A stretch of 64,000 nucleotides of DNA from Candidatus Omnitrophota bacterium (lineage in GTDB: Bacteria; Omnitrophota; Gorgyraeia; Zapsychrales; Fredricksoniimonadaceae), in the NCBI GenBank assembly GCA_015233145.1, contig JADFYI010000002.1, forward strand, positions 120,858 to 184,857, read 5' to 3'. The notes beneath the pieces are model-generated. The model made no database searches. It saw only the letters and a list, made by a program, of their open reading frames with translations, and was not told where the DNA came from. Below are positions 26,754 to 63,627 of this stretch, one piece after another. The first letter of the stretch is position 1. Each line of letters opens with the position of its first letter. Position numbers and translations under genes: made by a program.

Positions 26754-26754
26754 T

Positions 26755-34408: not shown

Positions 34409-34423
34409 CGCAAAAAACTCCTT

Positions 34424-37153: not shown

Positions 37154-37216
37154 CAGCCCTTCGGGCTGTTGGAGTAAATTTTGGGGTATGGAAACCTAAT
37201 AATTTCCCCAAAATTT
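37154..37216 (-). terminator. two stem-loops after lptB (weak terminator candidate)
   Basis: AAATTTTGGGG (37176..37186) pairs with CCCCAAAATTT (37206..37216). CAGCCC-TTC-GGGCTG lies at 37154..37168. Only a short U-run follows on the minus strand. Confidence 0.3.
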
Positions 37217-37937: not shown

Positions 37938-37945
37938 AATTTTTC

Positions 37946-38809
37946 CTAGAATTTAAGAGCGTCCGCACTGGTACGGTCACCGGGGTCAAGGATCAGCTTG
38001 GGCTTGCCGGTTAAAACCATGCGCTGCTCATCCGCCTTATAAATTAAACTTTCAGAATGAGTGATATTATTGCCCTGAAAAACCGAAACATGGCCTGTAC
38101 AAACAATTTCCTTGATTTTTCTTGTTTTCTGGTCGAAATGGACATCCATACGGTCAGCCTTTAACTTCCGGCCCGTGGCAATCTCAAAAGCAATGACATT
38201 ATCCGTAAAAACAGCGGTCTGGGTGTTCTGGTCGATCTCCATGGGGCCGTCGGATGTAATTTGAATGCGGCCGCCCTTTTTATCTTTTGTCTCGGACTTG
38301 ATATCTGCCGTAACACCGCTGTGAAGCGTGGCCTCTTTTAAAGATGGATGCGCATCCATTCCCGTGCCTTTGATCTTCATAGTTTCATCTTCAAGCGTCA
38401 CGACATCCTCGGTCTTCACAACATCCTTGCCTCTTTGCCAATCCAGGGTGTCGGTTTTCATCTGCGCGCCGCTTTCCGAGGTGATGACAACATTATTTTC
38501 CAGATGAACGTTTCCTGTGGCTTTGTCAATCACGCCCTTTTCCGCCATAAGATTGGTATCTTCATCGCCATAAGAATTGGCATTCACCTTGTTCACAGCC
38601 ACTTTGTTATCATTAATATCCGCGGTATCTCCCTTGATATCCCAGCTCTTTTCACCGCCCTCGGCATATCCTGAAAGGTTAAAGCCCTCCATCTGCTGGG
38701 GGACGCCCTGCGGAGACTTTTCTTTAACCGTGGAAGCGTCCTGGGCATAAACCTCAAAACCCAGCCCGCACAACAAAAGCATAGAAAAAAAACAAAGAGA
38801 AAGCTTCAT
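37946..38809 (-). CDS. lptA: OstA/LptA-family periplasmic LPS transport protein (long form)
   Basis: 287 aa from ATG 38809 (ATGA overlap with the kdsC stop), or a GTG start at 38821. It has a signal peptide ending VYAQ, and repeated beta-strand OstA-like sequence. Confidence 0.7.
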   Translation of the reverse strand: MKLSLCFFSMLLLCGLGFEVYAQDASTVKEKSPQGVPQQMEGFNLSGYAEGGEKSWDIKGDTADINDNKVAVNKVNANSYGDEDTNLMAEKGVIDKATGNVHLENNVVITSESGAQMKTDTLDWQRGKDVVKTEDVVTLEDETMKIKGTGMDAHPSLKEATLHSGVTADIKSETKDKKGGRIQITSDGPMEIDQNTQTAVFTDNVIAFEIATGRKLKADRMDVHFDQKTRKIKEIVCTGHVSVFQGNNITHSESLIYKADEQRMVLTGKPKLILDPGDRTSADALKF

Positions 38810-39309
38810 TTGATTGTCCACTTCCCCTGGGCTTTAAGGATTTTCTCAACAACCTCACGCACGGCACCCCTCCCGCCATGACACCGGGTAACGTAATGGG
38901 CCACACCTTTCAATTCCGGTGCAGCATTAGAAACAGCCACAGCAAAACCCACACGCGAAAGGATCTCAAAGTCCGGCAAATCATCCCCTATAAAACACAC
39001 CTCATCATCTTTGACATGAAATTTTTCAAGCATATCCCCATAGGCTGTGACCTTCGGAGAAACGCCCAGATAAACCTTGTCGATCTTAAGGTCATCCGTA
39101 CGCGCCTTGACAGCCCGGCAGCCGCGCGCAGAAATAACCGCTGTTTTAAGGCCTGCTTTACGAATACGCGCAATGCCATAACCGTCGCGCACGTCAAAAA
39201 ACTTGAGTTCCTTCCCATCGCCGTCATAAACAATACGGCCGTCTGTCATGACACCATCAACATCCATGGCCAGAACTTTGATTTTCTTTAATCTTTTTAA
39301 TCCGCTCAT
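38806..39309 (-). CDS. kdsC: 3-deoxy-D-manno-octulosonate 8-phosphate phosphatase
   Basis: 167 aa, HAD with DVDGVMTDG, in KdsC-family context. Confidence 0.92.
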   Translation of the reverse strand: MSGLKRLKKIKVLAMDVDGVMTDGRIVYDGDGKELKFFDVRDGYGIARIRKAGLKTAVISARGCRAVKARTDDLKIDKVYLGVSPKVTAYGDMLEKFHVKDDEVCFIGDDLPDFEILSRVGFAVAVSNAAPELKGVAHYVTRCHGGRGAVREVVEKILKAQGKWTIK

Positions 39310-40268
39310 CGGATAAGCCCTGCTTTCAGTAAATCCTGGACATCCAAAAGCCCCACCAGACGATTTTTACAGTCCACCACAGGAAGCTCGTCAACTTTCT
39401 TCTGAATAAGAAGTTCAAACGCCTCAACCGCCAGCCGGTCCTTATCAATGGTCAAGGGTGATTTGGTCATAACCTCGCTAACCTCCCGGTTCAACAACGC
39501 TTCATCTTCCTTCAAATGCCGGCGGAGGTCACCATCCGTAAAAATACCGACAAATTTCTTTTTAGCATCCACAATGCATGCCGAGCCGCAGCGCGCCGCT
39601 GTAATTTCCAAAAGGACTTCTTTGACAGGTGTTGTCGTTGCAACCACGGCAAAATGCCTGCCCTTGCGCATAACGTCTTCCACTTTCAACAGCAGCCTTC
39701 GGCCCAAACTTCCGCCAGGATGAAAAAACGCAAAATCCTCCTGCTTAAAATTCTTACGATCAATGAGACATGCGGCCAACGCATCACCCATAGCCAAAGT
39801 CGCTGTGGTAGACGCCATAGGCGCCAGCCCCAGGGGGCAGCCTTCTTTATCAACGCCGACATTTAAAACCAGGTCGCAATACCGGGCTAAGGATGATTTC
39901 AGGTCTCCGGTCATGGCAATGGTTTTACAACCAATCTTTTTCAGGCTCGGAAGAAGCCTCACAGTCTCTTCGGTTTCTCCGCTTGAGGAAATGAGAATCA
40001 CCACATCCTCGCGGCCAACCTGCCCCAAATCGCCATGCACAGCTTCCGCACTGTGCATAAAAATGCTGGGTGTTCCCGTGGAAGACAATGTGGCTGAAAT
40101 CTTATGGCCGATAATTCCGGTTTTCCCCATGCCAGCCACAACCACACGGCCTTTGCATTTTGTGATAATGGAAACAGCTTTCTTAAAATTATCATCGAGC
40201 CTGCTGATCAAAGATTTTAAGGCAGCGGCTTCAATCTCAAGAACATCTTTGGCACGTTTTAATGGCAT
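39306..40268 (-). CDS. kdsD: arabinose-5-phosphate isomerase (SIS + tandem CBS)
   Basis: 320 aa with the SIS motif VVVAGMGKTG and a C-terminal CBS pair. Confidence 0.93.
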   Translation of the reverse strand: MPLKRAKDVLEIEAAALKSLISRLDDNFKKAVSIITKCKGRVVVAGMGKTGIIGHKISATLSSTGTPSIFMHSAEAVHGDLGQVGREDVVILISSSGETEETVRLLPSLKKIGCKTIAMTGDLKSSLARYCDLVLNVGVDKEGCPLGLAPMASTTATLAMGDALAACLIDRKNFKQEDFAFFHPGGSLGRRLLLKVEDVMRKGRHFAVVATTTPVKEVLLEITAARCGSACIVDAKKKFVGIFTDGDLRRHLKEDEALLNREVSEVMTKSPLTIDKDRLAVEAFELLIQKKVDELPVVDCKNRLVGLLDVQDLLKAGLIR

Positions 40269-41086
40269 TTGACAATCCTGTCAATTTTTATCATGTCCCT
40301 CAAAAGCGGTTCCAGCTGTCCTAAAGGAATCATATTAGGCCCGTCGGAAAGTGCTTTTTTGGGGTTAACATGCGTTTCCATAAAAACCGCATCCACTCCT
40401 GCAGCCACGCCTGCGCGCGCCAGAAGGGGAACAAACTCGCTCTTGCCCCCTGTGGCCTCCCCAAGCCCGCCGGGCTGCTGCACGCTGTGGGTCACATCAT
40501 AAACAACCGGATACCCGGTCTCACGCATGATTTGGAAAGCGCGAAAATCCGTAACCAGGTTGTTATACCCGAAAGAAACGCCCCGCTCGGTCAAAAGAAT
40601 TTTATGGTTGCGAACCGCTTCAATCTTTTTCACAATGGCTTTGACATCCCACGGCGCCAAAAACTGTCCTTTTTTGATATTAATCACTTTCCCCGTCAAC
40701 GCCGCGGCCTGAACAAGGCTCGTCTGACGGCAAAGAAACGCAGGAATCTGGATAATATCAAGAACCTTTGCCGCAAGGTCAACTTCTGCAATATCATGCA
40801 CATCGCTTATGACAGGGACAGAAAAACGTTCTTTGATTTCTTTGAGGATTTCCAACCCGGCCTTGAGCCCCGGCCCCCGAAAAGAATTAACGGATGTACG
40901 ATTAGCCTTATCGTAGCTGACCTTAAAGACATAAGGAATTTTCAAACGCCTGGCAATCTTTATCAAATCAGCCGCCATTTTAACCGTGGCTTTGCGGCTC
41001 TCAATGACACACGGGCCTGCGATGAGAACAAAAGGATTATTCCCGCCGAATAGAACATCATTGACTTTAACAACACGTGTTTTCAT
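40259..41086 (-). CDS. kdsA: 3-deoxy-8-phosphooctulonate synthase
   Basis: 275 aa with full-length KdsA similarity (IQIPAFLCRQT). Confidence 0.95.
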   Translation of the reverse strand: MKTRVVKVNDVLFGGNNPFVLIAGPCVIESRKATVKMAADLIKIARRLKIPYVFKVSYDKANRTSVNSFRGPGLKAGLEILKEIKERFSVPVISDVHDIAEVDLAAKVLDIIQIPAFLCRQTSLVQAAALTGKVINIKKGQFLAPWDVKAIVKKIEAVRNHKILLTERGVSFGYNNLVTDFRAFQIMRETGYPVVYDVTHSVQQPGGLGEATGGKSEFVPLLARAGVAAGVDAVFMETHVNPKKALSDGPNMIPLGQLEPLLRDMIKIDRIVKCH

Positions 41087-41829
41087 TATTTTCCTTGCTG
41101 ACGAAGAAAGTAATCGTTTATTTTCTTTAAATCTTGAGGCGTATCAACACCGATTGTTTCATAATCCGTTAAAACCGTTTTTATCTTGTAGCCGGCTTCA
41201 AGGACACGCAATTGCTCCAGCGATTCCTCCTGCTCTAAAAAGGATTTTGGCCATGAACAATAATCCAGCAAGAAATCCCGGCGATAAGCATAAATCCCCA
41301 GATGCCTGAAACAACGGGAATAGTCTTCCACTTTTCCATCACGATGGAAAGGAATGGCCGCCCGAGAGAAGTAAAGCGCGTTCCATGTCCGGTCCACAAC
41401 AACCTTGACGATATTCGAATTGTTAAATTCTTCGGCTGTCCGGATCCGCTTAATCGCGGTTGTCATCACAGCGCCCATCTCTTTTTGAAGCGCATCCGCA
41501 AGGTCATCAATAAGCTTTGGCTCAATCAAGGGCTCATCGCCTTGAATATTCACAATCCCCTTGGCATCGGTTTGAAGCGCCACTTCCGCCACCCTGTCCG
41601 AACCGGAAACATGGTCCTTGCGGGTCAAAACAGCGTGCGCTCCAAATGACTTTGCCTTTTCAAAGACATGCTCCTCATCGCAGGCAATAATAACATCTGT
41701 CAAAGTTTTGGCTTGTTTGGCCCTTTCCCAAACATGCTGCAGCATGGGCTTTCCCGCAATATCAGCAAGGATCTTACCCGGAAAACGTGTGGAAGCCCAT
41801 CGGGCAGGAATAACGCCGATTAATGCCAT
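41086..41829 (-). CDS. kdsB: 3-deoxy-manno-octulosonate cytidylyltransferase
   Basis: 247 aa with IPARWASTRFPGK and NIQGDEP. Confidence 0.95.
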   Translation of the reverse strand: MALIGVIPARWASTRFPGKILADIAGKPMLQHVWERAKQAKTLTDVIIACDEEHVFEKAKSFGAHAVLTRKDHVSGSDRVAEVALQTDAKGIVNIQGDEPLIEPKLIDDLADALQKEMGAVMTTAIKRIRTAEEFNNSNIVKVVVDRTWNALYFSRAAIPFHRDGKVEDYSRCFRHLGIYAYRRDFLLDYCSWPKSFLEQEESLEQLRVLEAGYKIKTVLTDYETIGVDTPQDLKKINDYFLRQQGK

Positions 41830-42851
41830 CAGTTCTCCTTTAATGACACAATAAGTTCATCCGGAGTGACAGCCGCGGCACCAACCTTCCCCACCACAAT
41901 ACCAGCTGCGTGGTTGGCCAGGTCAGCGGCCTCTCTTTTTCCTGCTCCTGCGGCCATGGCCAGGGTAAAGACAGAAATCACGGTGTCCCCTGCGCCGGAA
42001 ACATCAAACACCTCTTTGGCGCGTGTCGGAATATGAAAAGGATCTTTCCCGCTTTCAAAAAGGTACATTCCATCCTCCCCCAGGGTCACCAGGAGAGAAT
42101 CAATGCCAAGATATTTAAGAAGCCCCAGGCCAGCATTCTTCACAGCATCAAGGCTGTCAAGGGTTGTTGTTTTAATCAAAACAGCCTTGCGGGTCTCTGG
42201 CTCAAGGCTTTTTAAGGCATTCTCGGTTTCTTTACGGTTGGGAGTGATGGCTGTCACGGGCCCATAAAATTTCAAATTCTCGACCTTAGGGTCAACAACA
42301 ACCGGAATCCCGGATCTTGCGGCCATGGTGGCAACATCATTCAAAAGCTCGGGCTGCACAATGCCTTTTCCGTAGTCGGAAATAATCACGGCATCGAAAC
42401 TGTTAAAATGTTTATGAATAAAAGGAGCGACTGTGTTGCAATAAAAAGCCCCGTCAGAGTCATCTACAATTTTTTCCCGGTCAATGCGGACCACCTGCTG
42501 GCGATGGGCAATGATCCGTGTCTTTAAAATAGTATGTACCCTTTTATCAGCAAAAATGCCTTCTGTGCGGATCTTGCGCTGATCCAGAACCTCCTTAAGA
42601 GTTGCTCCTTCATGATCATGGCCAATTCGGCCGACCACGGTGACCTTGGCTTCAAGGCTGCTCAGATTGTTGGCCACATTCGCCGCACCTCCAGGAGTGA
42701 AAAAAGACTCTTCCTGGACCACAACCGGAACCGGAGCCTCAGGCGAAATGCGGCTGACACTGCCCTTGATATACTGGTCGAGCATCAAATCTCCGACCAC
42801 AAGGACGTGCTTATTCCGAAACTCATTAAGTATGGAAGTATATTTTTTCAT
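41829..42851 (-). CDS. hldA: D-glycero-beta-D-manno-heptose-7-phosphate kinase (RfaE domain I, stand-alone)
   Basis: 340 aa of the pfkB family. The N-terminus VLVVGDLMLDQYIKGSVSRISPEAPVPV is typical of the HldE kinase domain. No adenylyltransferase domain is present. Confidence 0.85.
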   Translation of the reverse strand: MKKYTSILNEFRNKHVLVVGDLMLDQYIKGSVSRISPEAPVPVVVQEESFFTPGGAANVANNLSSLEAKVTVVGRIGHDHEGATLKEVLDQRKIRTEGIFADKRVHTILKTRIIAHRQQVVRIDREKIVDDSDGAFYCNTVAPFIHKHFNSFDAVIISDYGKGIVQPELLNDVATMAARSGIPVVVDPKVENLKFYGPVTAITPNRKETENALKSLEPETRKAVLIKTTTLDSLDAVKNAGLGLLKYLGIDSLLVTLGEDGMYLFESGKDPFHIPTRAKEVFDVSGAGDTVISVFTLAMAAGAGKREAADLANHAAGIVVGKVGAAAVTPDELIVSLKEN

Positions 42852-42910
42852 ATATTATTTTTAATTATTATAAAAAGAAGGAATTATCGTAACATGGCAG
42901 GAAAAGAATG

Positions 42911-44569
42911 TCAACGCGAGAGACTATTTCTGTATTTTTCTGTCACTTTGAATTCCATATACCGGCCCAGCATAAGGCGTGTTTGAGCGTCCAGAGCCGG
43001 AATAGCGCTAAAAACCAGAATAACAACCGGTATGGCCAGCCAATCAAAAACATGGAGGATTTTCTGGGAAAAACGCTGCTCTGTCGTGCTTGTGGATAAT
43101 AAAGAAAAACTGATCACCATACAGGCCAATAACCCCACCAGAGAAAGGTCAAATATAATGCCTTTAATACGCGGCGCCATATAATACATGGTTGTGGTGG
43201 CAAACTCCCTGCCGGCAAAAATCGTGGGAAGCCATGTGATAAAGACCAATAAAAAAGACCATGTGGCCCACGATATAAACCCGTCAAATAATCTGATGGC
43301 AAACATCAATTTCTTATAAAACGAAATTTCTTTGGCTTGTAAAAAGGCCCTGATGACAATCGGAAGATTTTCAACCCCCCAGGCCCAACGGCGTTTTTGT
43401 TTGTAAATATTAAGAAACGTCTGCCATGCATTTTTACCGCTGGCAATGTCCATGGAAACTGTCACATAAATAGGAACGACCTGATAATGGCCGTCATAAT
43501 GGATAAACGATTTCCAGAATATGGCGGAATCATCTGAAATCATGTCCACCGGCCAATATCCAACCTCAACCAGGGCCTGAAAACTCATGCTGTGGCTTGA
43601 AAACGTGACAAGCTTCTCCGTATTGGTAGCCTCAACAAGCTGAAAAAATGACGTGCCGATATCAATAATCCTGGCAAAACTCGGCACTTCCCAAAGATTA
43701 TTATAGTAAACCGGGATGGGCTGGAAGCTTGCCCTGGTTCGATTCGGCGTTATCATAAAATAATAGGTCAGGCAAGCCAGGTATTCGGCATGAGCCACGG
43801 TATCCGCGTCAAAACAAGAAACAATAACATTGTTGTAATCAAAGCCCTTTTCACGAAAATAAACAGCGGCCTTTCTGCCTGCAAAAGTGGCATTGGCCCC
43901 CTTCACCTTTGCCTCACCCGGGATGTCACAAGGATGCTCAGCGACAATAAAATCCATAAAATTTGTCTGAAATTTCTTTTGGATCGCGTAAACATCATCT
44001 TTCACTTCCTGGGAAGAGTGCTCTTCAAGGGCAATCAGGAGCAAAACCCTTTTTGCAGGATAGATGCCGCTGGCAATGCTTTTTACGCTCGGCTCTATGA
44101 CCTGGCGAGTCTCTTTGGACACAGGCAAAATCACCAAATGATAAATGTCGGTTGACCGTGGAGGAAGAGACCCGCTGGCCTTAAGGGCCGCAAGCTGCCT
44201 TCGGCGGATCATGGCAGCGAACCCTGAACGCAGGCCCTCGGATGATAAAAAAGGTTCCAGGGCGTTTTCAGCCTCACGAAAACGATCAACTAAAGCGATG
44301 AACTTCATCCAGTCGGTGTTTTTCTCGACAGAAAGGCGGGCATAAGAAACAGCCAGAAAAAAATTGATATAAACAAGCCTGAAAACCCAGTATAAAACAA
44401 AGGCCACCATAATTCCGGCGGCAATAAAGGGCTTCACAACAGAAAGGACTGTCATACCCAGAATAATAAACCAGGAAATAGCACCAGGGAGAATTTCCAG
44501 AAAACGCTCAAGCCTGTTCTCTTTCTCAGAAAGATTGTTACGCGAATAATTAAATTTCATCCGTATCAT
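42911..44569 (-). CDS. membrane-embedded family-2 glycosyltransferase, processive beta-glycan synthase-like
   Basis: 552 aa with N- and C-terminal TM bundles. Motifs are CFDADT, ISDDSAIF and QKRRWAWG (QxxRW). Confidence 0.8.
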   Translation of the reverse strand: MIRMKFNYSRNNLSEKENRLERFLEILPGAISWFIILGMTVLSVVKPFIAAGIMVAFVLYWVFRLVYINFFLAVSYARLSVEKNTDWMKFIALVDRFREAENALEPFLSSEGLRSGFAAMIRRRQLAALKASGSLPPRSTDIYHLVILPVSKETRQVIEPSVKSIASGIYPAKRVLLLIALEEHSSQEVKDDVYAIQKKFQTNFMDFIVAEHPCDIPGEAKVKGANATFAGRKAAVYFREKGFDYNNVIVSCFDADTVAHAEYLACLTYYFMITPNRTRASFQPIPVYYNNLWEVPSFARIIDIGTSFFQLVEATNTEKLVTFSSHSMSFQALVEVGYWPVDMISDDSAIFWKSFIHYDGHYQVVPIYVTVSMDIASGKNAWQTFLNIYKQKRRWAWGVENLPIVIRAFLQAKEISFYKKLMFAIRLFDGFISWATWSFLLVFITWLPTIFAGREFATTTMYYMAPRIKGIIFDLSLVGLLACMVISFSLLSTSTTEQRFSQKILHVFDWLAIPVVILVFSAIPALDAQTRLMLGRYMEFKVTEKYRNSLSR

Positions 44570-45981
44570 TCATCCTTGTTTAACAATTGCTCGACTATAT
44601 TTTCCTTGGGGATCAGCTGAATTTTCCTAAACTGCCCTGCCTCATCCAGAAAATAAACACACCCCGTCTCATTGCTATAAAAAATCAACGATCCTTTCTT
44701 CACGGAAACAAGCGCTTCCCCGTGAAATCCGCTGACCGGCTCTGTTTCAAAGACATAAATTTTGTCATTGTCATTCACAATCACATAGGAAGCGTCCAAC
44801 GCCCAAAAGCACTGTTTAATGTCTTCGCCCCCCTGGTAAACCTGCCGGAACTTCCATTCCTTGATGCCGCTCTGACCAGCTACAAATTTGGCCGAAAACA
44901 CGGCTCCGGCTGTCCATACCAGAAGAGATTTTGAGCGTTCATGATACTTAATCCCCAGGACACCCTTGTCCATCAGCTGATAGGGGGCAGAATTCGTGAT
45001 CAGCCGACCATCTTCCCCCTGGAGAAAAACAAGATCATCCGGATAAATCATAATATTGAAGAAAACATTTTTCCCCAACGCCGAGGTATCCATGCGCTTG
45101 TTTTCCAGGAAAGATTCCGGCTTGGTTTTTTCATGGTCATACTTGGTAAAAACATTTTCGTTGGAGACAAGAAATATTTTATTGTTGTGAAACCCGCAGC
45201 CTTTGACGTCTTCCAGGTATCTGGGATAAAAAGCAGAAGTCCCGACATCAATGCGGTCGATATAATTGGCATAAACAGGGAAAAGGTCATTGCTGCTCGC
45301 GGGATCCCACTTTATTAACAACGGATCTTTGGAAAATAATTTTGTGATATCCGAAATAACCGGAACGTCCCCTTTCATATCCACAAAAAGGTATTTTCTT
45401 TCCCACAGCCCGCCGCCATAGAGAATAAAGACCTTGCTGTCATCCTCATGAAAGACTGACAAAACCGGAAACCCGTACCATGCCGATGAGTGATCCGCGA
45501 GAGGAAAATGTTTATTTGTTTTCCAGTTGTGCAATTGAAAACTTCCCAGATTAACATCCTGGGCCGTAAGGATAAAATCCGTGCCCGTGAGCGGCCTTAA
45601 TTGCCGGAATGTTCCTGCCATAAAAATCGAAGGGGACAAATCTTTAGGAATCAAAAGGATCTTGTCAAACGCTGTTGCCTTTCCAGGGCTCACTGCAACC
45701 TGTTTACCCCATGTCCTGTAACCCGGCAAATCCAGGGTGACATGATACTGGCCGGGATGCAGTTCGTTGATATTCGTCGGGGTCTTTTGAACAAACCGGC
45801 TGTGCTCCAAATAAACGCTGGCGCCAGCAGGAATGGTGGACAAATGAATCAGCCCTGTCTGCTCAACCTCCCGAGTCAGGGGGTTGATGGTATACCCCAG
45901 GGCAAATAATAATAAGACCGGGCACACGATAAAATACAGCACGACAAGACAATAAAATATAATCCGGCGCAAAAGAAGCAT
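44566..45981 (-). CDS. PEGA-domain membrane-anchored protein with large uncharacterised C-terminal domain
   Basis: 471 aa with an N-terminal TM. The PEGA-like segment is IPAGASVYL...PGQYHVTLDLPGYRTW. It has a 4 nt overlap with the GT2 gene. Confidence 0.7.
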   Translation of the reverse strand: MLLLRRIIFYCLVVLYFIVCPVLLLFALGYTINPLTREVEQTGLIHLSTIPAGASVYLEHSRFVQKTPTNINELHPGQYHVTLDLPGYRTWGKQVAVSPGKATAFDKILLIPKDLSPSIFMAGTFRQLRPLTGTDFILTAQDVNLGSFQLHNWKTNKHFPLADHSSAWYGFPVLSVFHEDDSKVFILYGGGLWERKYLFVDMKGDVPVISDITKLFSKDPLLIKWDPASSNDLFPVYANYIDRIDVGTSAFYPRYLEDVKGCGFHNNKIFLVSNENVFTKYDHEKTKPESFLENKRMDTSALGKNVFFNIMIYPDDLVFLQGEDGRLITNSAPYQLMDKGVLGIKYHERSKSLLVWTAGAVFSAKFVAGQSGIKEWKFRQVYQGGEDIKQCFWALDASYVIVNDNDKIYVFETEPVSGFHGEALVSVKKGSLIFYSNETGCVYFLDEAGQFRKIQLIPKENIVEQLLNKDE

Positions 45982-45982
45982 T

Positions 45983-46504
45983 TTAAAGTTTCTTCTCCAA
46001 AAGCAGTTTTTCCATTAACCAGTCATCGGCCCAAAATCCGCCACCCAGATCCTTCATATCTGATGCCGCTTTAACAAACCCCATTCTTACATAAAAGTCA
46101 ATTGTCGCGGCGTTTCTTTTATTCACATTCAATGACAAGGCCTTTAGATTCATTGATCGGGCCATGTCTTCAACAAACCCAAGCATCTCACGGCCAAACC
46201 CCTGTCCCCGGTAACGGGCCAAAAGATACAATTTGCTTAAAAAAAGCGAAGCTCCTTTTCCCTCTGGAACCACTGATAAATAACCGATATTATTCTTCTC
46301 AAAAACAACAAGAAAATACAGCGCCCCGTCTTCAATCTGTTTTTTAATGGCACCCGCTGATTGAAACTGCGCCAGCATATACTGAACCTGCTCAGGGCCG
46401 ATAATGGGCAAAAAATGCTCAGGCCAAATCTCCCGGGCCAGGCACTCAACATTGTTGATGCCTGTATTATCCGCAACCTTTATAAATGATGCCCTTAACG
46501 CCAT
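45983..46504 (-). CDS. GNAT family N-acetyltransferase
   Basis: 173 aa with the acetyl-CoA site RYRGQGFGREML. Confidence 0.8.
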   Translation of the reverse strand: MALRASFIKVADNTGINNVECLAREIWPEHFLPIIGPEQVQYMLAQFQSAGAIKKQIEDGALYFLVVFEKNNIGYLSVVPEGKGASLFLSKLYLLARYRGQGFGREMLGFVEDMARSMNLKALSLNVNKRNAATIDFYVRMGFVKAASDMKDLGGGFWADDWLMEKLLLEKKL

Positions 46505-46523
46505 GCCCCCTCCTCATTTCAAA

Positions 46524-46940
46524 TCAATGATGAGATAATGCCGGAGGCGCCGGACGGTCCAAAACCCTTGCATTCTCTAAAACCTTTGTTTCTTTTTGAT
46601 CCTGATCAATCTTTCCGGAAATATAAGCCCTTATCCTTTGGCCAGCCAAAAGTTTGGGTGCTTGAGAAGTTAAAATCTCCACATTGGCCTGTGTGGAGGC
46701 GTCATATTCCGTATTGCATGAGAAATCTTTATAAAGCACCGGATCCCCTTCACGCACCTGCCCAAGGACAGACATGACCAAAATATCCACTTTCCCGCTG
46801 GAATAAGAGCGAAGAACCCTGGCCGTCACTTCGCAGGCCGGAGTTACGATTGCAGGGCTCGAAGTGTCTGAATCTGCCCGAAGAGGGCTCGTAAACACAA
46901 AAGAAAAAAGCATCATCAAAAACACTGATCGCATATTCAT
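46524..46940 (-). CDS. secreted hypothetical protein
   Basis: 138 aa with the signal peptide MNMRSVFLMMLFSFVFTSPLRA. No family recognised. Confidence 0.55.
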   Translation of the reverse strand: MNMRSVFLMMLFSFVFTSPLRADSDTSSPAIVTPACEVTARVLRSYSSGKVDILVMSVLGQVREGDPVLYKDFSCNTEYDASTQANVEILTSQAPKLLAGQRIRAYISGKIDQDQKETKVLENARVLDRPAPPALSHH

Positions 46941-47272
46941 TTTCTTGTCCTTTTTATCTTCCTATTCACTTTTCCATGGCCCAAGACCAAAATGTCTTTT
47001 TCTTTTCTTGTTAACCTCTTGATCCGGCATTCTTCGGCAAATGCTGATTTATAATAGCAAAATTTTCTGGCATAAACCAGGCAAAATGGCCGCCGGGCAC
47101 GGACATATTTTGAACCCTTCCCAGACTCGTGAAGTTTCAAACGAATTTTAAGATTATTGGTATATCCTGTGTAGAACGAGCCGTCCGCGCACTCTAAAAT
47201 ATAGACAGCAAACCGGCCTTTACGAATAAACTTCCGTTTCACCTTTTTTAAAAAAATTTTTCTTTTTCTCAC
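46937..47272 (-). CDS. GIY-YIG domain protein (UPF0213/YhbQ-like) with basic N- and C-terminal tails
   Basis: 111 aa. The segment FAVYILECADGSFYTGYTNNLKIRLKLH carries the GIY-YIG core. It has 4 nt overlaps with both neighbours. Confidence 0.8.
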   Translation of the reverse strand: MRKRKIFLKKVKRKFIRKGRFAVYILECADGSFYTGYTNNLKIRLKLHESGKGSKYVRARRPFCLVYARKFCYYKSAFAEECRIKRLTRKEKDILVLGHGKVNRKIKRTRK

Positions 47273-48951
47273 AGCCCCGTCGCTTTGGCTTGGACCCGGA
47301 CAATATACTCATCCCCTATGACCTTAAGCAAGTCACATTGAAGCCCCATACCCAAAGCAACTCGCTTGATTTCATTATAATAGGTACGGTTAACCAAAGC
47401 ATAAGAAATGGCCTGACTTCTTAAGAAATCTTTCAGTTTTTCTTCGGCATTTAAAGTCACGACAGGATGCGGGCTGAAAAAATTGGAGCCATTGGCATTG
47501 ATGACCGCAACATTTTTATCCGTATACAGACTGACCCCGCGAAGAAACATCTTGGAGCAAATAACAATATTATTGACTGAATAATTCTTGGCTAAATACT
47601 GCGCAGCATTTTTACTGGAAACATAATCCCCGAAATGCTGATATGAACCCAGGGCCACCATGAGAATCAAAAGAGGCTGTGCAGCCAGAAAATACACCCC
47701 CGCTCGATACTTTTTCTTAAAAAGAAAAAAGAGCCCTGTGGAAAATAAAACAATATAAAAAGCGGCCACGCCCAAAACCTTGACCGGTGAAGGAAGATAA
47801 ACCGGATACTTCCAAAGGCCGATGAGAAGAATTATAGGGATAACAAAAAAGAAAATCCCTGTAGCCTTAAAAAGCCGCCCGATAGTTTTTCCTTTTTCAT
47901 GGCGCAGGAACGTGTCTATATAATCTCCGGCCAAAATGCCCATGGCAGGAAAAAGCGGGAGGATATAACTCACAAGCTTGGAATGGGCGATTTGAAAGAC
48001 CACAAAAACAACAGCAATCCATATCAAACAAAATTGTTCAACAGCCAGAAGGCTTTCTTTATTCTTTAGACGGGACGCAAACCAAACGAAAGCGGCGCCC
48101 ATAAAAAAAGTCCAGGGAAACATGCAGCCCAGCATGGACAAAGGGTAAAAATAAAATTTATCATTCGAACGATGTTCCGCGATAATAAGGCGGCGCCAGT
48201 GGTCGTTATAAAAAAATTCGTGCGTAAAAAAAACGCCGTATTTTTTAATCACAAAAACATACCAGGGCAAAGCCACACCCCAAAAAAGAAGAAACCCGGC
48301 CAACACCGCAGGGCATAATAAAAAACGCAGTTCCTTACGGCAAAAAAGGAAAATAGCCACAACAAACGCCGGCAAAACCAACCCCAAAGGCCCTTTTGTA
48401 AGCACAGCAAGCCCGGCAAAAAGAAAAGCGAGAACAATTCCCCATGTTTTCCTCGCAGGAACCTGGTAAGCCCAGAAAAATGCTGCCAGAGAAAAAAGCA
48501 TTGAAACCGAGAAAATCATATCCGTAAAAACCGTGCGCCCCATTCCTATGTAAAAAACAGATGACATGAGGATCAGTGCCGAGAGAAACGCCTTGCGCCG
48601 GTCACCAAATCCTAAGCATGCCATCCAGTAAACCAAAAGCACGCCAAGGCCGGCAAAAAAAGCCGGAAAAAAACGCGCGGAAAAATTTGTTTCTCCGAAA
48701 AGAAGAAAACTGACCCGCAAAAACCAGTAAACGCCGATGGGCTTTTCAAATTGGGGCTGGTCAAAAAGATAAGGCACGTTCCAGGAAGCCTTCTGCACCA
48801 TTTCCCTTGCGGTCTGGACATAAAAGACCTCATCGGGATTGGTAAGGTCCATGACATTATTGCCGGCAAAAAAGAATGCCCCTGACAAAAGGACTAACAA
48901 AACGATATTCCTCAACCCATCCCCTTGTGCTTTTAAAAATTTTTCCATCAT
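47269..48951 (-). CDS. GT-C fold glycosyltransferase, ArnT/PMT (family 39/83)-like
   Basis: 560 aa with about 12 TM helices. The N-terminal loop motif is DEVFYVQTAREM ... FEKPIGVYW. Confidence 0.8.
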   Translation of the reverse strand: MMEKFLKAQGDGLRNIVLLVLLSGAFFFAGNNVMDLTNPDEVFYVQTAREMVQKASWNVPYLFDQPQFEKPIGVYWFLRVSFLLFGETNFSARFFPAFFAGLGVLLVYWMACLGFGDRRKAFLSALILMSSVFYIGMGRTVFTDMIFSVSMLFSLAAFFWAYQVPARKTWGIVLAFLFAGLAVLTKGPLGLVLPAFVVAIFLFCRKELRFLLCPAVLAGFLLFWGVALPWYVFVIKKYGVFFTHEFFYNDHWRRLIIAEHRSNDKFYFYPLSMLGCMFPWTFFMGAAFVWFASRLKNKESLLAVEQFCLIWIAVVFVVFQIAHSKLVSYILPLFPAMGILAGDYIDTFLRHEKGKTIGRLFKATGIFFFVIPIILLIGLWKYPVYLPSPVKVLGVAAFYIVLFSTGLFFLFKKKYRAGVYFLAAQPLLILMVALGSYQHFGDYVSSKNAAQYLAKNYSVNNIVICSKMFLRGVSLYTDKNVAVINANGSNFFSPHPVVTLNAEEKLKDFLRSQAISYALVNRTYYNEIKRVALGMGLQCDLLKVIGDEYIVRVQAKATGL

Positions 48952-49619
48952 AGTTTTTTCCCGTAAACAGTTGATATAACCTTCTCGGGCATGACATGAG
49001 AAAAATATGTGCGCGGCGACTGAAATAAAATTTCAAAACCATTCTTGCAAAAAAAGGCCTCTGCCCGTAAAGACATGGAAGCCATCCGGACACCAGGAAC
49101 CGCAGCTTTTTTCAAATAGGCAAGATACGTTTCAATAAGGCTGGTCCCGGCGCCATAAGCGCGCGCGTTTTCCGAAAGGTTGATATGCAGTGTGGCCGGG
49201 TATTTTTGATAAAAATCAGGAGTAAAAAATTCGCCGCGCACAAAAGAAAGAAAAAGACGGCCCAGCAAAGCCCAATTTTTTGCCTTTCCCCAAAACCCGG
49301 AAACAATAGACCGCCAGAAAACCGGCCCTAAAATTTTTGTAACAAAAACGCGCTCCATAGGATGCGTATCTTTGGCCCCTGAAATATATCCGACAACTTC
49401 TCCGGACCGTTCTGCGACAAATAAAGACTCTGGCTCATAATCTGTAAAATAAAGCGTCAACAGATCCGCAAGGATTTCATCGCCTTCTAAAAAAAGATTC
49501 GCTGGCCGGCCCATGAGTGCCGTTGCAACCGCAATGCGCCGCACAGCCTCACGGTCGCTGGCCGCATAAGAACGAATCAGGATTTCCTGCCCCATAACTT
49601 TTTCCTCCCCACCTTCCAC
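48948..49619 (-). CDS. GNAT family acetyltransferase
   Basis: 223 aa with GNAT-like core strands. The start is uncertain (alternative M9). Confidence 0.65.
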   Translation of the reverse strand: MEGGEEKVMGQEILIRSYAASDREAVRRIAVATALMGRPANLFLEGDEILADLLTLYFTDYEPESLFVAERSGEVVGYISGAKDTHPMERVFVTKILGPVFWRSIVSGFWGKAKNWALLGRLFLSFVRGEFFTPDFYQKYPATLHINLSENARAYGAGTSLIETYLAYLKKAAVPGVRMASMSLRAEAFFCKNGFEILFQSPRTYFSHVMPEKVISTVYGKKL

Positions 49620-50056
49620 AATGTCATACCGGCGTAAATCGTTACAAAAAGAAAAAGGCCTGTCAAAAGCGCCAGCACAAAGCTGCCTGTAAAAAGCACC
49701 ACAAGAAATTCGCCTAATTTTTGAAAATGAAAATTGCGGAAATAATCCAGTGACAACGATGGCAGCGAAGGATTAAGAATCCGGCGGCCGATGTCATAAC
49801 CTGCCCAGGTAATGAACGGCACCGTGGGCGGCAAAGAAACATTGGTCCCCAAAAGAACAGCAGCCTTGTTGACGCGCGGAATCAAAAAAGCCAGCATCAC
49901 CGCAAGAATAGTATGAAAGCCGTAAAGGGGCAAAATCACCACAAAAGCGCCCACGGAAAAGCCCAGGGCAATCCCGAATGGTGACGCATTCTCCTTTAAA
50001 AGCCTTGCCGCCGCCGCTTTTAAACGCGGCCATAAATCCAACTTTGCCATAAACAT
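49577..50056 (-). CDS. DUF2062-family membrane protein
   Basis: 159 aa. The segment SPFGIALGFSVGAFVVILPLYGFHTILAV is typical of DUF2062. Confidence 0.7.
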   Translation of the reverse strand: MFMAKLDLWPRLKAAAARLLKENASPFGIALGFSVGAFVVILPLYGFHTILAVMLAFLIPRVNKAAVLLGTNVSLPPTVPFITWAGYDIGRRILNPSLPSLSLDYFRNFHFQKLGEFLVVLFTGSFVLALLTGLFLFVTIYAGMTLWKVGRKKLWGRKS

Positions 50057-59673: not shown

Positions 59674-60426
59674 TCACATGAGATTAATGACTTCCTTGGG
59701 AAGATTTTTAAGTTCCTCGGTCCCCAGAATCTTGACCGACCAGCGCAAAAGCTGAATCTTTTTCTTAAGACGAGAATCGTTGGGATCAGCATTTTGTAAT
59801 TTCTTGCGCGCCAGAAAAAACGTCTTTCTCAAAGTATTAAAAACAATCCTGGCCTCACGCGTGCGCTGGTTGCCGGCCTCAATAATATGGTTGAGCGCCT
59901 TATCCGCCAGGTCGCTGACCGTGTCATCATAATGATCCATTTTTTGAACAAGCGCCGGAACCATGGCGTCAAAATAACGATAGCGGTCCATAATGACCAA
60001 GGTATGCATGATCTCAACCTGGACAAAAACAGAACTGGCCCTTTCCATCTGGCGAAGAAGAACCCGCTCGATGATCACCCTCTCGCTTTGGACCATCTGG
60101 GGGGCAAATCTTTCGCGAAAAACCCTTATTGCAGCGGCTTTTTTGTAAGGATAAAGGCTGTCATCATTGATCATGGCGAGCAATATGTCTTTCGGGGCGT
60201 TTGACAGCTTGGCCGAATAACCGTCAATCAAAAGTCTGTCGTCAAAAATATTGTCTAACGAATCGCCGGGAGATGTTAATGAGGCTGCAACATGGCCCGT
60301 GTCTGCGACCGCAGGAAGCGGCGAAGCCAATGACGCTGCAGGGTCTGCCCCTGCTTTCAGGGGCTCTGCCGCTGCGTTCAGCGCTCCCAGGAAAAAAAGG
60401 ATCAAAAAAAGAAAAAAGGCTCTCAT
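59674..60426 (-). CDS. exported alpha-helical repeat protein (hypothetical)
   Basis: 250 aa with a signal peptide and a helical, HEAT/ARM-like composition. It has a 4 nt overlap with nadC. Confidence 0.6.
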   Translation of the reverse strand: MRAFFLFLILFFLGALNAAAEPLKAGADPAASLASPLPAVADTGHVAASLTSPGDSLDNIFDDRLLIDGYSAKLSNAPKDILLAMINDDSLYPYKKAAAIRVFRERFAPQMVQSERVIIERVLLRQMERASSVFVQVEIMHTLVIMDRYRYFDAMVPALVQKMDHYDDTVSDLADKALNHIIEAGNQRTREARIVFNTLRKTFFLARKKLQNADPNDSRLKKKIQLLRWSVKILGTEELKNLPKEVINLM

Positions 60427-61274
60427 CCCATCAGCTCCAGTGTCATATCAATGGCCTTGCGAGAATGTGTCAGTGATCCGACGGAAATCCGGTCAACCCC
60501 GGTTGCCGCGATTTTCTTGACGTTCTCAAGCGTAATGCCTCCTGAGGCCTCCAAAAGGGGCGGCTTGTTCGGGCAGCATTTTCGTGTCATGACCACAGCT
60601 TTTTTCAGTTCCAGCGGGGTCATGTTATCCAAAAGCACCATTTCAGGATGGGCTTTTAACACCTCTTCCAGTTCCCACAAATGATCCACTTCGATTTCAA
60701 TCTTTTTATGGGTCTTTATGTGCAGCCTGCGGACAGTCTCTGATAATTTTTCCTTTTCGCGTGAAATGACCCGGTGATTGTCCTTTAAAAGGACCATATC
60801 ATGCAAATTAAACCTGTGATTGACGCCCCCGCCGCAACGCACAGCGTAACGCTCAATAGGCCGGGCACACGGGGTTGTTTTACGGGTATCAAGAATCTTG
60901 ACCGGGTAAGGCTTCACAGCTTCCGTAAAAAAATGCGTTCTTGTGGCAATCGCAGACAAGTAGCTTAAAAAATTCAAGGCCACCCGCTCGCCGGTTAAAA
61001 TAGCGCGCGTTTTCCCGTTGAGGGTAATCAATGACGCGCCTTTTTTCACCTTGTCGCCGTCTTTAAAATGAGCCATAAACTCCATTTTAGGGTCCAGCAA
61101 AGAAAAAACCTCATGGGCAAACGCCATCCCGCACAAGACCACGTCTTCTCGCGTAAGAATAACGCCCTTGCTCTTGTGGGAAGAGCCGACCACCAGGGTG
61201 GTTGTGATGTCGCCTGCGCCGATATCTTCTTTAAGCGCGGCAAGGACTGTTTTTTTAATCTCTTCGTGGTGCAT
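60423..61274 (-). CDS. nadC: nicotinate-nucleotide pyrophosphorylase (carboxylating)
   Basis: 283 aa with LKEDIGAGDITT and full-length NadC similarity. Confidence 0.94.
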   Translation of the reverse strand: MHHEEIKKTVLAALKEDIGAGDITTTLVVGSSHKSKGVILTREDVVLCGMAFAHEVFSLLDPKMEFMAHFKDGDKVKKGASLITLNGKTRAILTGERVALNFLSYLSAIATRTHFFTEAVKPYPVKILDTRKTTPCARPIERYAVRCGGGVNHRFNLHDMVLLKDNHRVISREKEKLSETVRRLHIKTHKKIEIEVDHLWELEEVLKAHPEMVLLDNMTPLELKKAVVMTRKCCPNKPPLLEASGGITLENVKKIAATGVDRISVGSLTHSRKAIDMTLELMG

Positions 61275-61285: not shown

Positions 61286-61314
61286 ATTATAATATCAGAA
61301 AAAAAGCGTTTCAA
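61286..61314 (-). promoter_or_regulatory. near-consensus sigma70 promoter of nadC (very short 5' UTR)
   Basis: Minus strand TTGAAA (61314..61309), a 17 nt spacer, TATAAT (61291..61286), then 11 nt to ATG 61274 with no SD. Confidence 0.5.
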
Positions 61315-61339: not shown

Positions 61340-61801
61340 TTATGTCCCGGCGGGAGGAACTTTTAAATTAATTTCAAAAGAAACCCGAATATAGTCCTGG
61401 GGCAAATGGCAATCATGGGCCCCCTTGATCACGGCGGCAATGTATTCGTGAGACGGCGCGCCCTCGGGATGAGGCTCACGGGTATAGACCCAGGCCTGAA
61501 TTTTATCCTTCCGGCCTCTTAAATCCACATTAACCTGGCGGCGTTGATAAAAACGGGGATACCCTTCATACCCATCTAGGACTTTTAACTGGCTTTCAGA
61601 AATTTCAAATAACCCTCCCCAAACCTCGTCATCCCGGGAAGGCAAAATGTTCGCCACAGCCCCGCGCCAATGCGTGGAATAACCGTCAAACACAAGCCAA
61701 TAGCCAGTCAACCGCGCCGGGCCGACAAATATCGCACCGGGACACCGTTCTTTAAGCATCTGGTTATGGTCCATGTTAGAGCCATAAGCAAAATAAAACA
61801 T
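61340..61801 (-). CDS. gamma-glutamylcyclotransferase (AIG2/GGCT-like) family protein
   Basis: 153 aa with FYFAYGSNM and LDGYEGYP. Confidence 0.85.
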   Translation of the reverse strand: MFYFAYGSNMDHNQMLKERCPGAIFVGPARLTGYWLVFDGYSTHWRGAVANILPSRDDEVWGGLFEISESQLKVLDGYEGYPRFYQRRQVNVDLRGRKDKIQAWVYTREPHPEGAPSHEYIAAVIKGAHDCHLPQDYIRVSFEINLKVPPAGT

Positions 61802-61894: not shown

Positions 61895-62944
61895 TTAATC
61901 TGTAAAAACACCTTTTAAGCGCAAGTCAGTATCCATCATCCGCTCCAAATCAGGAACCTGGTCTTTTTCAGAAAGGACCGTATAAAAATCAGACTTAATG
62001 GTAGGAGCCATTTTAAAGGCCTCAATCCATTCTGCCTTCACAAAAGGATCATCCTTAACAGCCTTCCAGAAATCAGTCCTGTCAAAAAGCCCGGCAATCC
62101 TCTCCGTGCCCCGGCCCTGCAACTGGCTGACCATATAGGTCGCAACCCCGACCTGCAGGCCATGCAAACGCGGCTTTTCACACACCAGGTCAAGGGCATG
62201 GGAAATCAAATGTTCGCTTCCGCTCGCCGGACGCGACGACCCGCAGATTTCCATCGCGATCCCGTTTAACATGAGCGCAGTTCCCAGAAGGCGGATACCC
62301 TCGAGATCATGATCCGGTTTAGCCATCAGCTGAAAAACCGTGGCATCCGACAAAAGCGCTGCAAAATCATCCACCTGGGTTCCTTTGATTTTATATGCCA
62401 GCTTCCAGTCGTAAATGGCTGTAATTTTCGCCACAGAATCCCCGATTCCGGCGAGCCAGAGTATCCGCGGGGCTTTAAGGCATACCTCGGTATCAATCAC
62501 AATACCGTAAGGCATGGCCGCAGGGTAACTGTGTTTTTGGCCCTGAAAATCCAGGCTGGACTGCGGAGAGCAAAAACCGTCATTGGAAAGGGCTGTGGGA
62601 ACCGCAATATAAGGCAGCTGCATTAAAAAAGCCACATACTTGGCCACATCCAAAGCCTTTCCGCCGCCAAAAGCAATAATCACGTCAGTTTTCTTCGGGA
62701 TGGACTGAAAAATTTCCTGGGCCCGTTCAAAGCTTGAGGCAGACACTTCCACCTCAGAGATGATATCCGCCCCTTGCGTGCGGAGGGAACGCTTCACACG
62801 TTCCACGAGCCCCGAATCAAGTTCCTGGCTGAAAATAAGAACAACCCTCATCAACCGGCTTCGTTCCACATAAACTCCCAGGCGGTCTAAAGCGCCGGGC
62901 TTAATGCGGACCAGCGTTGGAATAATAATGGAGGTGTTTCTCAT
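61895..62944 (-). CDS. egsA: sn-glycerol-1-phosphate dehydrogenase (archaeal EgsA / bacterial AraM family)
   Basis: 349 aa. Four blocks match archaeal G1PDH as I recall it (M. jannaschii): GGGKALDVAKYVAFLMQLPYIAVPTALSNDGFCSP, IGDSVAKITAIYDWKLAYK, SSRPASGSEHLISHALD and LHGLQVGVAT. Confidence 0.85.
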   Translation of the reverse strand: MRNTSIIIPTLVRIKPGALDRLGVYVERSRLMRVVLIFSQELDSGLVERVKRSLRTQGADIISEVEVSASSFERAQEIFQSIPKKTDVIIAFGGGKALDVAKYVAFLMQLPYIAVPTALSNDGFCSPQSSLDFQGQKHSYPAAMPYGIVIDTEVCLKAPRILWLAGIGDSVAKITAIYDWKLAYKIKGTQVDDFAALLSDATVFQLMAKPDHDLEGIRLLGTALMLNGIAMEICGSSRPASGSEHLISHALDLVCEKPRLHGLQVGVATYMVSQLQGRGTERIAGLFDRTDFWKAVKDDPFVKAEWIEAFKMAPTIKSDFYTVLSEKDQVPDLERMMDTDLRLKGVFTD

Positions 62945-63627
62945 GGATTCCTGTCCTCTTTCAAAAGCGCCCGGGCAACTTCATCCCAGTGGTCAAAGGG
63001 AACAAAGCTTTCGCCAATCTCATGAAGTTTCTTGGCAAGCCAGCTTTTGGCAAAACGGCGCTCCGGGGAAACCAAAAGCGCAGGTGCCAAATCCGGCCGG
63101 CCATCGCCAGCAAAAGCCACCTTGGCTGATCTTTGGAGCGCATCCTTAACGACAAAAACCTTGTTCACGCCCAAATCCGCAGAGAAAAAAGGCGAGGCTT
63201 CGGGCAAACGCATCACAAGGCCTTTCTGAGAAGAAAACTCGCCGGGGTTCGCGTGTACCGTGATATCAACGTGGCTATTTTTCAAAAGCCGGCGGATATA
63301 CCAATCGCATCCGGCAGAGGCCACAACCACAGACCAGCCCTTTGCGGAAAGATCTTTAACCGCATCTGCCAGTTTAGGTTCAATCTGCATGCTGTTAACA
63401 ATTTCTAAAATATCGTGTTCACTCGCCCGTATCCCTCCAAAAATAAGCCGTAGCGCTTCAAAATGGGTCAATTCGCCTTGTTCATACCGCGGCCAGAAAT
63501 CTCCGGCAATTTGAGGAAACGCCTGACAAACAAGGTCATAAAAATCAAACCGCGTCATGGTGCCGTCAAAATCAGTTACTAATATCCCGGCCTTTGAGTC
63601 TTTAGACAATACACTTTCTTTATCCAT
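62941..63627 (-). CDS. HAD-IB family phosphatase (MtnX/PSP-like)
   Basis: 228 aa with motif I VTDFDGTMT and motif IV FAGDGRPD. It has a 4 nt overlap with the G1PDH gene. Confidence 0.8.
   Translation of the reverse strand: MDKESVLSKDSKAGILVTDFDGTMTRFDFYDLVCQAFPQIAGDFWPRYEQGELTHFEALRLIFGGIRASEHDILEIVNSMQIEPKLADAVKDLSAKGWSVVVASAGCDWYIRRLLKNSHVDITVHANPGEFSSQKGLVMRLPEASPFFSADLGVNKVFVVKDALQRSAKVAFAGDGRPDLAPALLVSPERRFAKSWLAKKLHEIGESFVPFDHWDEVARALLKEDRNP

Follow-up and report, generated by a model that had tools for sequence, protein, structure and literature searches.

The closest described counterpart of the genes considered here is the araL-araM pair of Bacillus subtilis. AraM is a Ni2+-dependent sn-glycerol-1-phosphate (G1P) dehydrogenase (G1PDH) and is known to supply PcrB, and AraL is a sugar phosphatase of the HAD-IIA subclass that, to our knowledge, has not been tested on G1P. 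Both genes are part of the araABDLMNPQ-abfA arabinose operon, in which araA, araB and araD are followed by a 272-aa HAD-IIA gene, araL, ending at 5004, and then by araM, starting at 5001. In archaea the G1PDH gene egsA feeds GGGPS and DGGGPS for the synthesis of membrane lipids. [quoted passage not shown] A gene pair with the layout of araL-araM is found in a 64,000 nucleotide (nt) stretch of contig JADFYI010000002.1 from a Candidatus Omnitrophota bacterium (assembly GCA_015233145.1, positions 120,858 to 184,857 of the forward strand), here called the window. The first gene (63627..62941, minus strand) encodes an MtnX-like, C1-capped HAD-IB phosphatase of 228 aa, recognised from its open reading frame (ORF) and HAD models. 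The second (62944..61895, minus strand) encodes a 349-aa dehydrogenase of the Fe-ADH_2 / EgsA-AraM family, recognised from its ORF, Pfam, NCBIfam and PDB matches, motifs and tree. In most sampled bacteria the G1PDH gene is locked to a phosphatase gene, which can be replaced by one of an unrelated phosphatase subclass. The constancy of this partner suggests that G1P is dephosphorylated in these bacteria and not built into archaeal-type membranes.

The window pair has the same gene order as araL-araM, phosphatase then dehydrogenase, and the same 4 nt overlap. The HAD gene ends with AAT CCA TGA and the dehydrogenase gene starts with ATG AGA, with the ATGA at 62941..62944 of the minus strand common to both when the sequence is read. 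A Shine-Dalgarno-like GAGGA is located 9 nt 5' of the dehydrogenase ATG, within the HAD coding sequence. The ATGA overlap is a mark of translational coupling of the two genes. The coordinates of the pair, the 349-aa length of the dehydrogenase and the overlap of its start with the HAD stop, all given in the initial annotation of the window, are borne out by the sequence. The edge of the window lies 373 bases upstream of the HAD gene, where the end of a small membrane-protein ORF without a family match is found. Promoter and terminator scans around the pair gave results at chance level.

The likeness to AraL-AraM was also part of the initial annotation, with the proviso that AraL belongs to a different HAD subfamily, and both parts of this are upheld. 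AraL is HAD-IIA, whereas the window phosphatase is a non-orthologous HAD-IB protein with a C1 cap, and there is no significant alignment between them (E 0.052, motif I only). The dehydrogenases are homologous, but their core identity is 34% and the window protein is 45 residues shorter than AraM. The window pair has no arabinose operon around it and no known G1P consumer, whereas for AraM this consumer is PcrB. By analogy, the window cassette may work like AraL-AraM with a non-orthologous phosphatase.

The association of the two genes was surveyed across genomes taken as one per GTDB species, which gave 80 dehydrogenase loci, with 2 more added by exact protein look-up. These 82 loci come from at least 10 phyla, and their sole recurrent neighbour is a HAD phosphatase gene directly upstream of the dehydrogenase gene, present in 65 loci (55 HAD-IB and 10 HAD-IIA). 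In 51 loci the dehydrogenase is 51-75% identical to that of the window, and 37 of these have a HAD-IB gene immediately upstream in the same orientation, the sources being Omnitrophota, Verrucomicrobiota, Planctomycetota, Myxococcota, Desulfovibrionales, Acidobacteriota, Armatimonadota and Actinomycetota. At about 40% identity (Fibrobacter, Elusimicrobia, gut Alphaproteobacteria, Treponema and other spirochaetes, and Actinomycetes) the upstream slot holds a HAD-IB gene in 18 of the 31 loci, itself diverged to 25-34% identity, and a HAD-IIA gene of the NagD/AraL type in 10. The HAD-IIA partner passes TIGR01460 (155 bits, with a 100-bit cutoff) and matches AraL at 33% identity over the full length (E 9e-39). 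The pairing generalises the AraL-AraM arrangement.

The association was also followed from the phosphatase side. Scanning metagenomes with a HAD-IB alignment gave 80 loci, and the dehydrogenase gene is immediately downstream of the HAD-IB gene in 69 of them (69 of the 76 that are informative). The 11 others comprise four truncated loci, one with the dehydrogenase gene 2 kb away and six true exceptions, which have no substitute gene in common. A predicted overlap of 1, 4 or 7 nt is found in 86 of 123 homologous pairs and 19 more pairs are within 30 bases of each other, counts that rest on heuristic start assignment. Homologues of the two proteins have the same taxonomic spread, with many contigs in common.

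All-against-all clustering of the neighbouring ORFs of the 82 loci found no third recurrent family, and after the dehydrogenase and HAD-IB the biggest cluster is HAD-IIA, in 8 loci. Prenyltransferases, nucleotidyltransferases and acyltransferases are not among the recurrent neighbours, either within about 10 kb in the 82 loci or within about 4 kb in the 80 further loci. Since unrelated HAD subclasses share the same slot across phyla and there is no other constant partner, phosphatase chemistry itself appears to be what selection keeps beside the dehydrogenase. This near-obligate coupling to a HAD phosphatase, with replacement of the subclass, appears to be unreported, although the bacterial G1PDH clade itself is already recognised; a phosphatase partner of G1PDH is unmentioned in the lipid-divide literature searched.

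Individual loci of the survey have features of their own. In a Candidatus Marinamargulisbacteria metagenome-assembled genome (MAG; locus L054) there is no HAD gene, and the G1PDH-like gene is followed at 9 nt by the start of a Metallophos_2 calcineurin-like phosphoesterase gene (11044-11577, 80.6 bits). Phosphatase partners may thus be of a third kind as well, seen in a single case. At locus L001, Aldolase_II and FGGY kinase genes (591-3046; the AraD and AraB families) are located on the strand opposite to the pair, at a distance of about 6 kb. They echo the araB-araD-araL-araM order of B. subtilis (locus L164); this may be coincidence, and there is no recurrence in the clustering. Apparent HAD-dehydrogenase fusion ORFs in the high-GC loci L024 and L056 are an artefact of long open frames, with the tblastn matches to the two proteins in different reading frames.

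The dehydrogenase belongs to the Pfam family Fe-ADH_2 (138 bits). Its best NCBIfam model by far is NF002022, the archaeal G1PDH equivalog, which is matched over the full length at 243.6 bits (E 2.9e-72). This score is under the curated cutoff of 413 bits, which places the protein with the bacterial members of the G1PDH family and not with archaeal EgsA. The bacterial relatives, at 192-240 bits, are likewise under the cutoff. The GldA model NF006941 matches the N-terminal half only, at 73.6 bits against a cutoff of 336, and the haloarchaeal glycolaldehyde reductase model gives 50.7 bits. The closest solved structure is 3ce9, a structural genomics entry named "glycerol dehydrogenase" (E 4e-67, full length), and the G1PDHs of M. 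jannaschii (4rgq, E about 4e-43) and P. calidifontis (5fb3, E 3e-41) are also matched over the full length. A further match, 9h4x (E 6e-28), is Bacillus AraM, being 99% identical to P0241, which is named sn-glycerol-1-phosphate dehydrogenase [Bacillus]; true GldA structures are at 1e-16 or weaker. Core identity to the window protein is 47% for 3ce9, 43% for the M. jannaschii enzyme, 36% for that of P. calidifontis, 34% for AraM and 24% for E. coli GldA.

The motifs were compared in an alignment of the dehydrogenase family with E. coli GldA and the G1PDH structures. The nucleotide-binding G93-G94-G95 is invariant, as are D169, H245 and H261, which bind the metal. Just before the metal-binding His there is a five-residue Ser-Arg-Pro-x-Ser-Gly insertion (S237-R238-P239-x-S241-G242), and further G1PDH-specific residues are E244, H249 and D179-W180. 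All positions that are identical in three verified G1PDHs but not in GldA are kept in the window protein and are 96-100% conserved among 23 bacterial relatives, whereas E. coli GldA has a gap or different residues there. The SSRPASGSEHL loop is identical to that of M. jannaschii, and the EgsA motif blocks listed in the initial annotation are present and align with the M. jannaschii and P. calidifontis enzymes. The SRPxSG loop of G1PDH may bind the substrate phosphate. The window protein shares its fold family, metal ligands and signature loops with archaeal EgsA (4rgq/4rgv, 5fb3), but its gene is paired with a phosphatase gene, whereas archaeal egsA feeds GGGPS and DGGGPS.

The closest structure, 3ce9, from Clostridium acetobutylicum, falls in the clade of about 40% identity whose members are, like the window dehydrogenase, associated with HAD-IB. 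It has a Ser in place of the conserved Arg of the SRPxSG loop (R238), the sole such case among 23 family members. The name under which it was deposited is probably generic, and it may act on a different substrate.

In a neighbour-joining tree of 215 core columns, rooted with GldA as a single outgroup, the window dehydrogenase is within a clade of 90% support, which joins a second bacterial tier containing 3ce9. On this rooting the assayed G1PDHs appear to bracket the family, with GldA apart, the deep nodes having 53-69% bootstrap support. This placement agrees with published trees, in which most bacterial homologues of G1PDH are in a deep bacterial clan (PMC6431249) or form a fast-evolving bacterial group (PMC5059525). 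The description of the enzyme as an "archaeal-type" G1PDH in the initial annotation holds for the family and is too strong for the type, given the score under the equivalog cutoff and the position in a large bacterial clade beside AraM. The further statement that in bacteria the enzyme is known from Bacillus AraM and a few lineages is contradicted by 5360 cluster representatives at E<=1e-10 and by loci from many phyla, Omnitrophota to Alphaproteobacteria. Homologues have already been tabulated in Planctomycetes, Verrucomicrobia, Fibrobacteres, Deltaproteobacteria, Spirochaetes and others (PMC5059525, PMC6431249). The window pair is neither an archaeal transfer nor a rarity, being a member of a large recognised bacterial G1PDH clade. 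An AlphaFold2 (AF2) model of the dehydrogenase from a 12-sequence alignment has a pLDDT of 60 and is too poor to use. On its sequence features the window dehydrogenase belongs to the bacterial part of the G1PDH family, outside the archaeal equivalog, and is very probably a true G1PDH.

The phosphatase is matched by Pfam HAD at 32.3 bits and passes the HAD-IB subfamily model TIGR01488 (53.3 bits, with a 45-bit cutoff), while the MtnX-like subfamily model TIGR01489 is narrowly missed (78.7 against 81.55 bits). All four HAD motifs are intact, motif I being Asp-x-Asp of the phosphatase/mutase type, and D19-F-D21-G-T23, S104, K156 and G174-D175-G-R-P-D179 are invariant in 27 homologues. By sequence its closest solved relative is a phosphoserine phosphatase, at E 4e-07 only. 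The AF2 model has a pLDDT of 93, and the helices at 29-95, between strand 1 and strand 2, form a C1 cap. In a fold search with this model the nearest structure is B. subtilis MtnX (2fea, TM 0.72-0.74, 19% identity), with phosphoserine phosphatases next, and the MtnX-like HAD phosphatase of the initial annotation is to this extent confirmed. No membrane segments are predicted. These features point to a C1-capped HAD of the small-phosphomonoester kind, from an uncharacterised subfamily.

MtnX, the 2-hydroxy-3-keto-5-methylthiopentenyl-1-phosphate phosphatase of methionine salvage, is the nearest fold and the source of automatic annotations, but the conserved partner of the window HAD is G1PDH. 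The phosphatase is not MtnX itself, with 34.1 against 292 bits for NF007103 and 30.1 against 303 bits for TIGR03333, and no methionine-salvage genes are adjacent, the neighbours being those for G1PDH, an AIG2-like protein and nadC. A SerA-like ORF of 529 aa and a class-V aminotransferase/SerC-like ORF of 379 aa, identified by eye at 32819-35563 on the minus strand, raised the idea that the phosphatase is a missing SerB. This was rejected on scores of 19 against 144 bits for TIGR00338 and 30 against 413 for NF008350, as well as on the conserved pairing with G1PDH.

Taken together, the pair may be a two-gene module that converts dihydroxyacetone phosphate (DHAP) to G1P and G1P to glycerol, with the phosphatase partner acting as a G1P phosphatase; the prospects of this assignment are about evenly balanced. 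The dehydrogenase would reduce DHAP with NAD(P)H to G1P, which the coupled HAD phosphatase would hydrolyse to glycerol and phosphate, and the hydrolysis step would render the sequence irreversible. The net reaction would be DHAP + NAD(P)H to glycerol + Pi. As the dehydrogenase retains features that go with a phosphate-bearing substrate, the phosphatase most simply acts second. sn-Glycerol-3-phosphate (G3P) is an essential bacterial phospholipid precursor, and use of the G1P enantiomer would keep the flux apart from the G3P pool. Possible purposes are a redox or overflow valve, a supply of glycerol or control of the G1P pool, and any particular one of these is proposed with less confidence than the G1P phosphatase activity. 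The relatives of both phosphatase types are groups that act on small phosphomonoesters, HAD-IB including MtnX and the phosphoserine phosphatases and HAD-IIA including NagD, pNPPase and the glycerol-3-phosphate phosphatases. The HAD-IB relatives act on C3-C5 phosphoesters. No description of a glycerol-1-phosphate phosphatase was found in the literature searched.

The same logic, reduction of DHAP followed by HAD hydrolysis of the glycerol phosphate, is seen in glycerol synthesis of the yeast Gpd1/Gpp1 type. The yeast system differs in having the opposite stereochemistry of glycerol phosphate and an unrelated dehydrogenase of the GpsA/Gpd type rather than of the Fe-ADH/DHQS-like fold, and the likeness would be an analogy of function, not membership. 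The glycerol-3-phosphate phosphatases of mouse (PGP, 7po7) and M. tuberculosis (Rv1692, 4i9f) are HAD-IIA proteins, of a different HAD subclass from the window phosphatase; both are matched by a HAD-IIA partner from the survey at about 93 bits.

Several observations weigh against this interpretation. The substrates of both enzymes, the order of the two steps and the purpose of the pair are inferred from sequence and pairing. The Bacillus G1PDH gene is paired with HAD-IIA, yet Bacillus has a G1P user in PcrB (PMC9179154), and the same is true of Fibrobacteres, which have GGGPS and DGGGPS (PMC6431249). The pairing is therefore compatible with a lipid role, and making G1P only for hydrolysis looks wasteful in these bacteria. 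A HAD-IB gene next to the dehydrogenase gene is missing from 14 of the 51 loci at 51-75% identity, two of which are cut by a contig end, and the AraM-type genes of Paenibacillus and Oceanobacillus have no upstream HAD gene. Since such unpaired loci exist, the dehydrogenase can work alone. The position of AraM as sister to the bacterial group, with the two archaeal enzymes outside, depends on deep nodes of only 53-69% bootstrap. There is also an earlier case of G1PDH misannotation, the haloarchaeal glycolaldehyde reductase, which is only about 22% identical to true G1PDH.

G1P might instead be a building block, for a prenyl-glyceryl ether lipid made with a GGGPS or PcrB encoded elsewhere, for acyl lipids through PlsY/PlsC or, as an activated glycerol phosphate, for a wall polymer, with the HAD phosphatase dephosphorylating a downstream product or trimming G1P. 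In B. subtilis AraM feeds PcrB and the product, heptaprenylglyceryl phosphate (HepGP), is dephosphorylated by an unnamed enzyme (PMC9179154), while Fibrobacteres combine GGGPS and DGGGPS with a G1PDH that is paired with HAD-IIA (PMC6431249). PlsY and PlsC were reported in 2026 to accept both enantiomers, including G1P, in vitro (PMC13400652), and Streptomyces araM is syntenic with genes for a nucleotidyltransferase, a CDP-alcohol phosphotransferase and tagGH (PMC13118837). Against this, no prenyltransferase, nucleotidyltransferase or acyltransferase is recurrent in the 162 neighbourhoods. The HAD-IB protein is moreover soluble, with a closed C1 cap and no predicted membrane segment, and its fold relatives act on small soluble phosphoesters. 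The absence of PcrB and UbiA from the window stated in the initial annotation agrees with the polytopic and PcrB-sized ORFs scanned, among which there is no prenyltransferase, although the window was not scanned exhaustively. The mixed-membrane significance implied in that annotation has no support from context, the conserved partner being a phosphatase and not a prenyltransferase. A building-block role is unlikely on this evidence. A particular form of it, in which PlsY/PlsC would put cassette-derived G1P into acyl phospholipids, giving heterochiral bacterial membranes with the HAD phosphatase as a G1P-specific valve that sets the G1P:G3P ratio, is very improbable. If true, it would mean a leaky lipid divide in Omnitrophota, Planctomycetes-Verrucomicrobia-Chlamydiae (PVC) bacteria, myxobacteria, sulfate reducers and others.

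The two steps could also run in the reverse order, with DHAP or a small ketose phosphate dephosphorylated and the free ketone then reduced, as in dihydroxyacetone to glycerol. The phosphatase gene leads the operon, and its nearest fold, MtnX, is generally known to use a DHAP-like 1-phospho-2-hydroxy-3-keto compound. S. pneumoniae Gtp1 is reported to act in this way in the CDP-2-glycerol pathway, which would make Gtp1/Gtp3 a precedent. The dehydrogenase, however, keeps every G1PDH-specific feature that is not found in GldA, including the Arg-containing insertion, and its GldA and glycolaldehyde reductase scores are low. Nor is a Gtp2-like nucleotidyltransferase conserved near the pair in the 82 loci. 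A phosphatase-first order has only a small chance of being correct.

Oxidative salvage would run the dehydrogenase from G1P to DHAP, with the G1P derived from archaeal lipids, lipoteichoic acid or phosphatidylglycerol head groups and the HAD phosphatase acting on a related phosphoester. It is established that the G1PDH reaction is reversible and, judging from record titles, many carriers of the pair share sediments and guts with archaea. The conserved surroundings of the pair, however, include no transporter, phosphodiesterase or lipase, and if both enzymes used the same G1P, phosphatase and dehydrogenase would be in competition, not cooperation. The tight translational coupling suggests instead consecutive steps at fixed stoichiometry, and salvage is a slightly poorer prospect than the reversed order.

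That the dehydrogenase has drifted to another substrate, the G1PDH label being a misannotation of the haloarchaeal kind, would fit its score under the equivalog cutoff and the deposited name of 3ce9, but the haloarchaeal enzyme is about 22% identical to true G1PDH where the window protein has 43% core identity and identical active-site loops, AraM is further from archaeal G1PDH than the window protein and is yet reported as a characterised G1PDH (PMC13400652; PMC5059525), and 3ce9 carries a structural-genomics label and is the only family member without R238, so that drift is a long shot. A haloarchaeal pentose-bisphosphate pathway was rejected, its models giving only 50.7 bits on the dehydrogenase and, for ribulose bisphosphate (RuBP) phosphatase, about 29-30 bits on the HAD-IIA partners.

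The genes downstream of the pair are on the same strand. An AIG2/GGACT-like protein of 153 aa (61340..61801, minus strand; Pfam AIG2_2 and GGACT) is encoded 93 nt downstream of the dehydrogenase gene. In other Omnitrophota-like loci a gene of this gamma-glutamyl cyclotransferase fold is directly upstream of the HAD gene (L003 8893-9336, L004 3380-3808, L085 1745-2188 and L091 220-648). It is found near the pair in Omnitrophota-like loci only and is absent from its neighbourhood in other phyla. The AIG2/GGACT-like gene is a possible lineage-specific third member in Omnitrophota, with no obvious link to glycerol phosphate. It is followed by nadC (61274..60423, minus strand). The only strong sigma-70 site of the region, an 11/12 match to the consensus (TTGAAA, 17 nt, TATAAT) at 61286-61314 on the minus strand, is just upstream of nadC, which may be transcribed apart from the HAD, G1PDH and AIG2 genes. 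At two survey loci the HAD gene is immediately preceded, on its own strand, by genes for large polytopic membrane proteins without a Pfam match, one of 445 aa at L001 (7575-8912) and two of 401 and 551 aa in an Omnitrophica MAG (L002, 6454-9325). They are mutually dissimilar by clustering and are not conserved across loci.

Elsewhere in the window, a block of cell-envelope genes extends over 37200-49700 on the minus strand. KdsA (40259-41086) and KdsB (41086-41829) are confirmed, in agreement with the assignment of the window to a lipopolysaccharide-encoding bacterium in the initial annotation. The block also has a GT2-like membrane glycosyltransferase (42911-44569), a PEGA-domain protein (44566-45981), a PMT/ArnT-like GT-C (47269-48951), a GNAT protein (48948-49619) and a DUF2062 protein (49577-50056). 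KdsC/KdsD-like ORFs (38806-39309 and 39306-40268) and Lpt-like ORFs (37215-37937 and 37946-38821) were recognised by eye only. An apparent uppS-cdsA-dxr-rseP cluster at 25641-29482, also on the minus strand, has an ordinary bacterial isoprenoid/phospholipid arrangement. Its only Pfam-confirmed gene is that for a bacterial CdsA (27906-28736, minus strand; CTP_transf_1, 179 bits).

The pairing suggests a simple and testable explanation for the long-unexplained adjacency of AraL and AraM in B. subtilis, and the phosphatase partner is a candidate first family of phosphatases dedicated to sn-glycerol-1-phosphate. A direct test is feasible in cultured carriers of the pair, which include Solidesulfovibrio alcoholivorans DSM 5433 and Sorangium. 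The pairing argues against the default reading of bacterial G1PDH genes as lipid genes. Should G1P be the substrate of the phosphatase, lipid synthesis is probably not the role of many bacterial G1PDH genes, and the presence or absence of G1PDH in comparative tables should not be counted as lipid potential.

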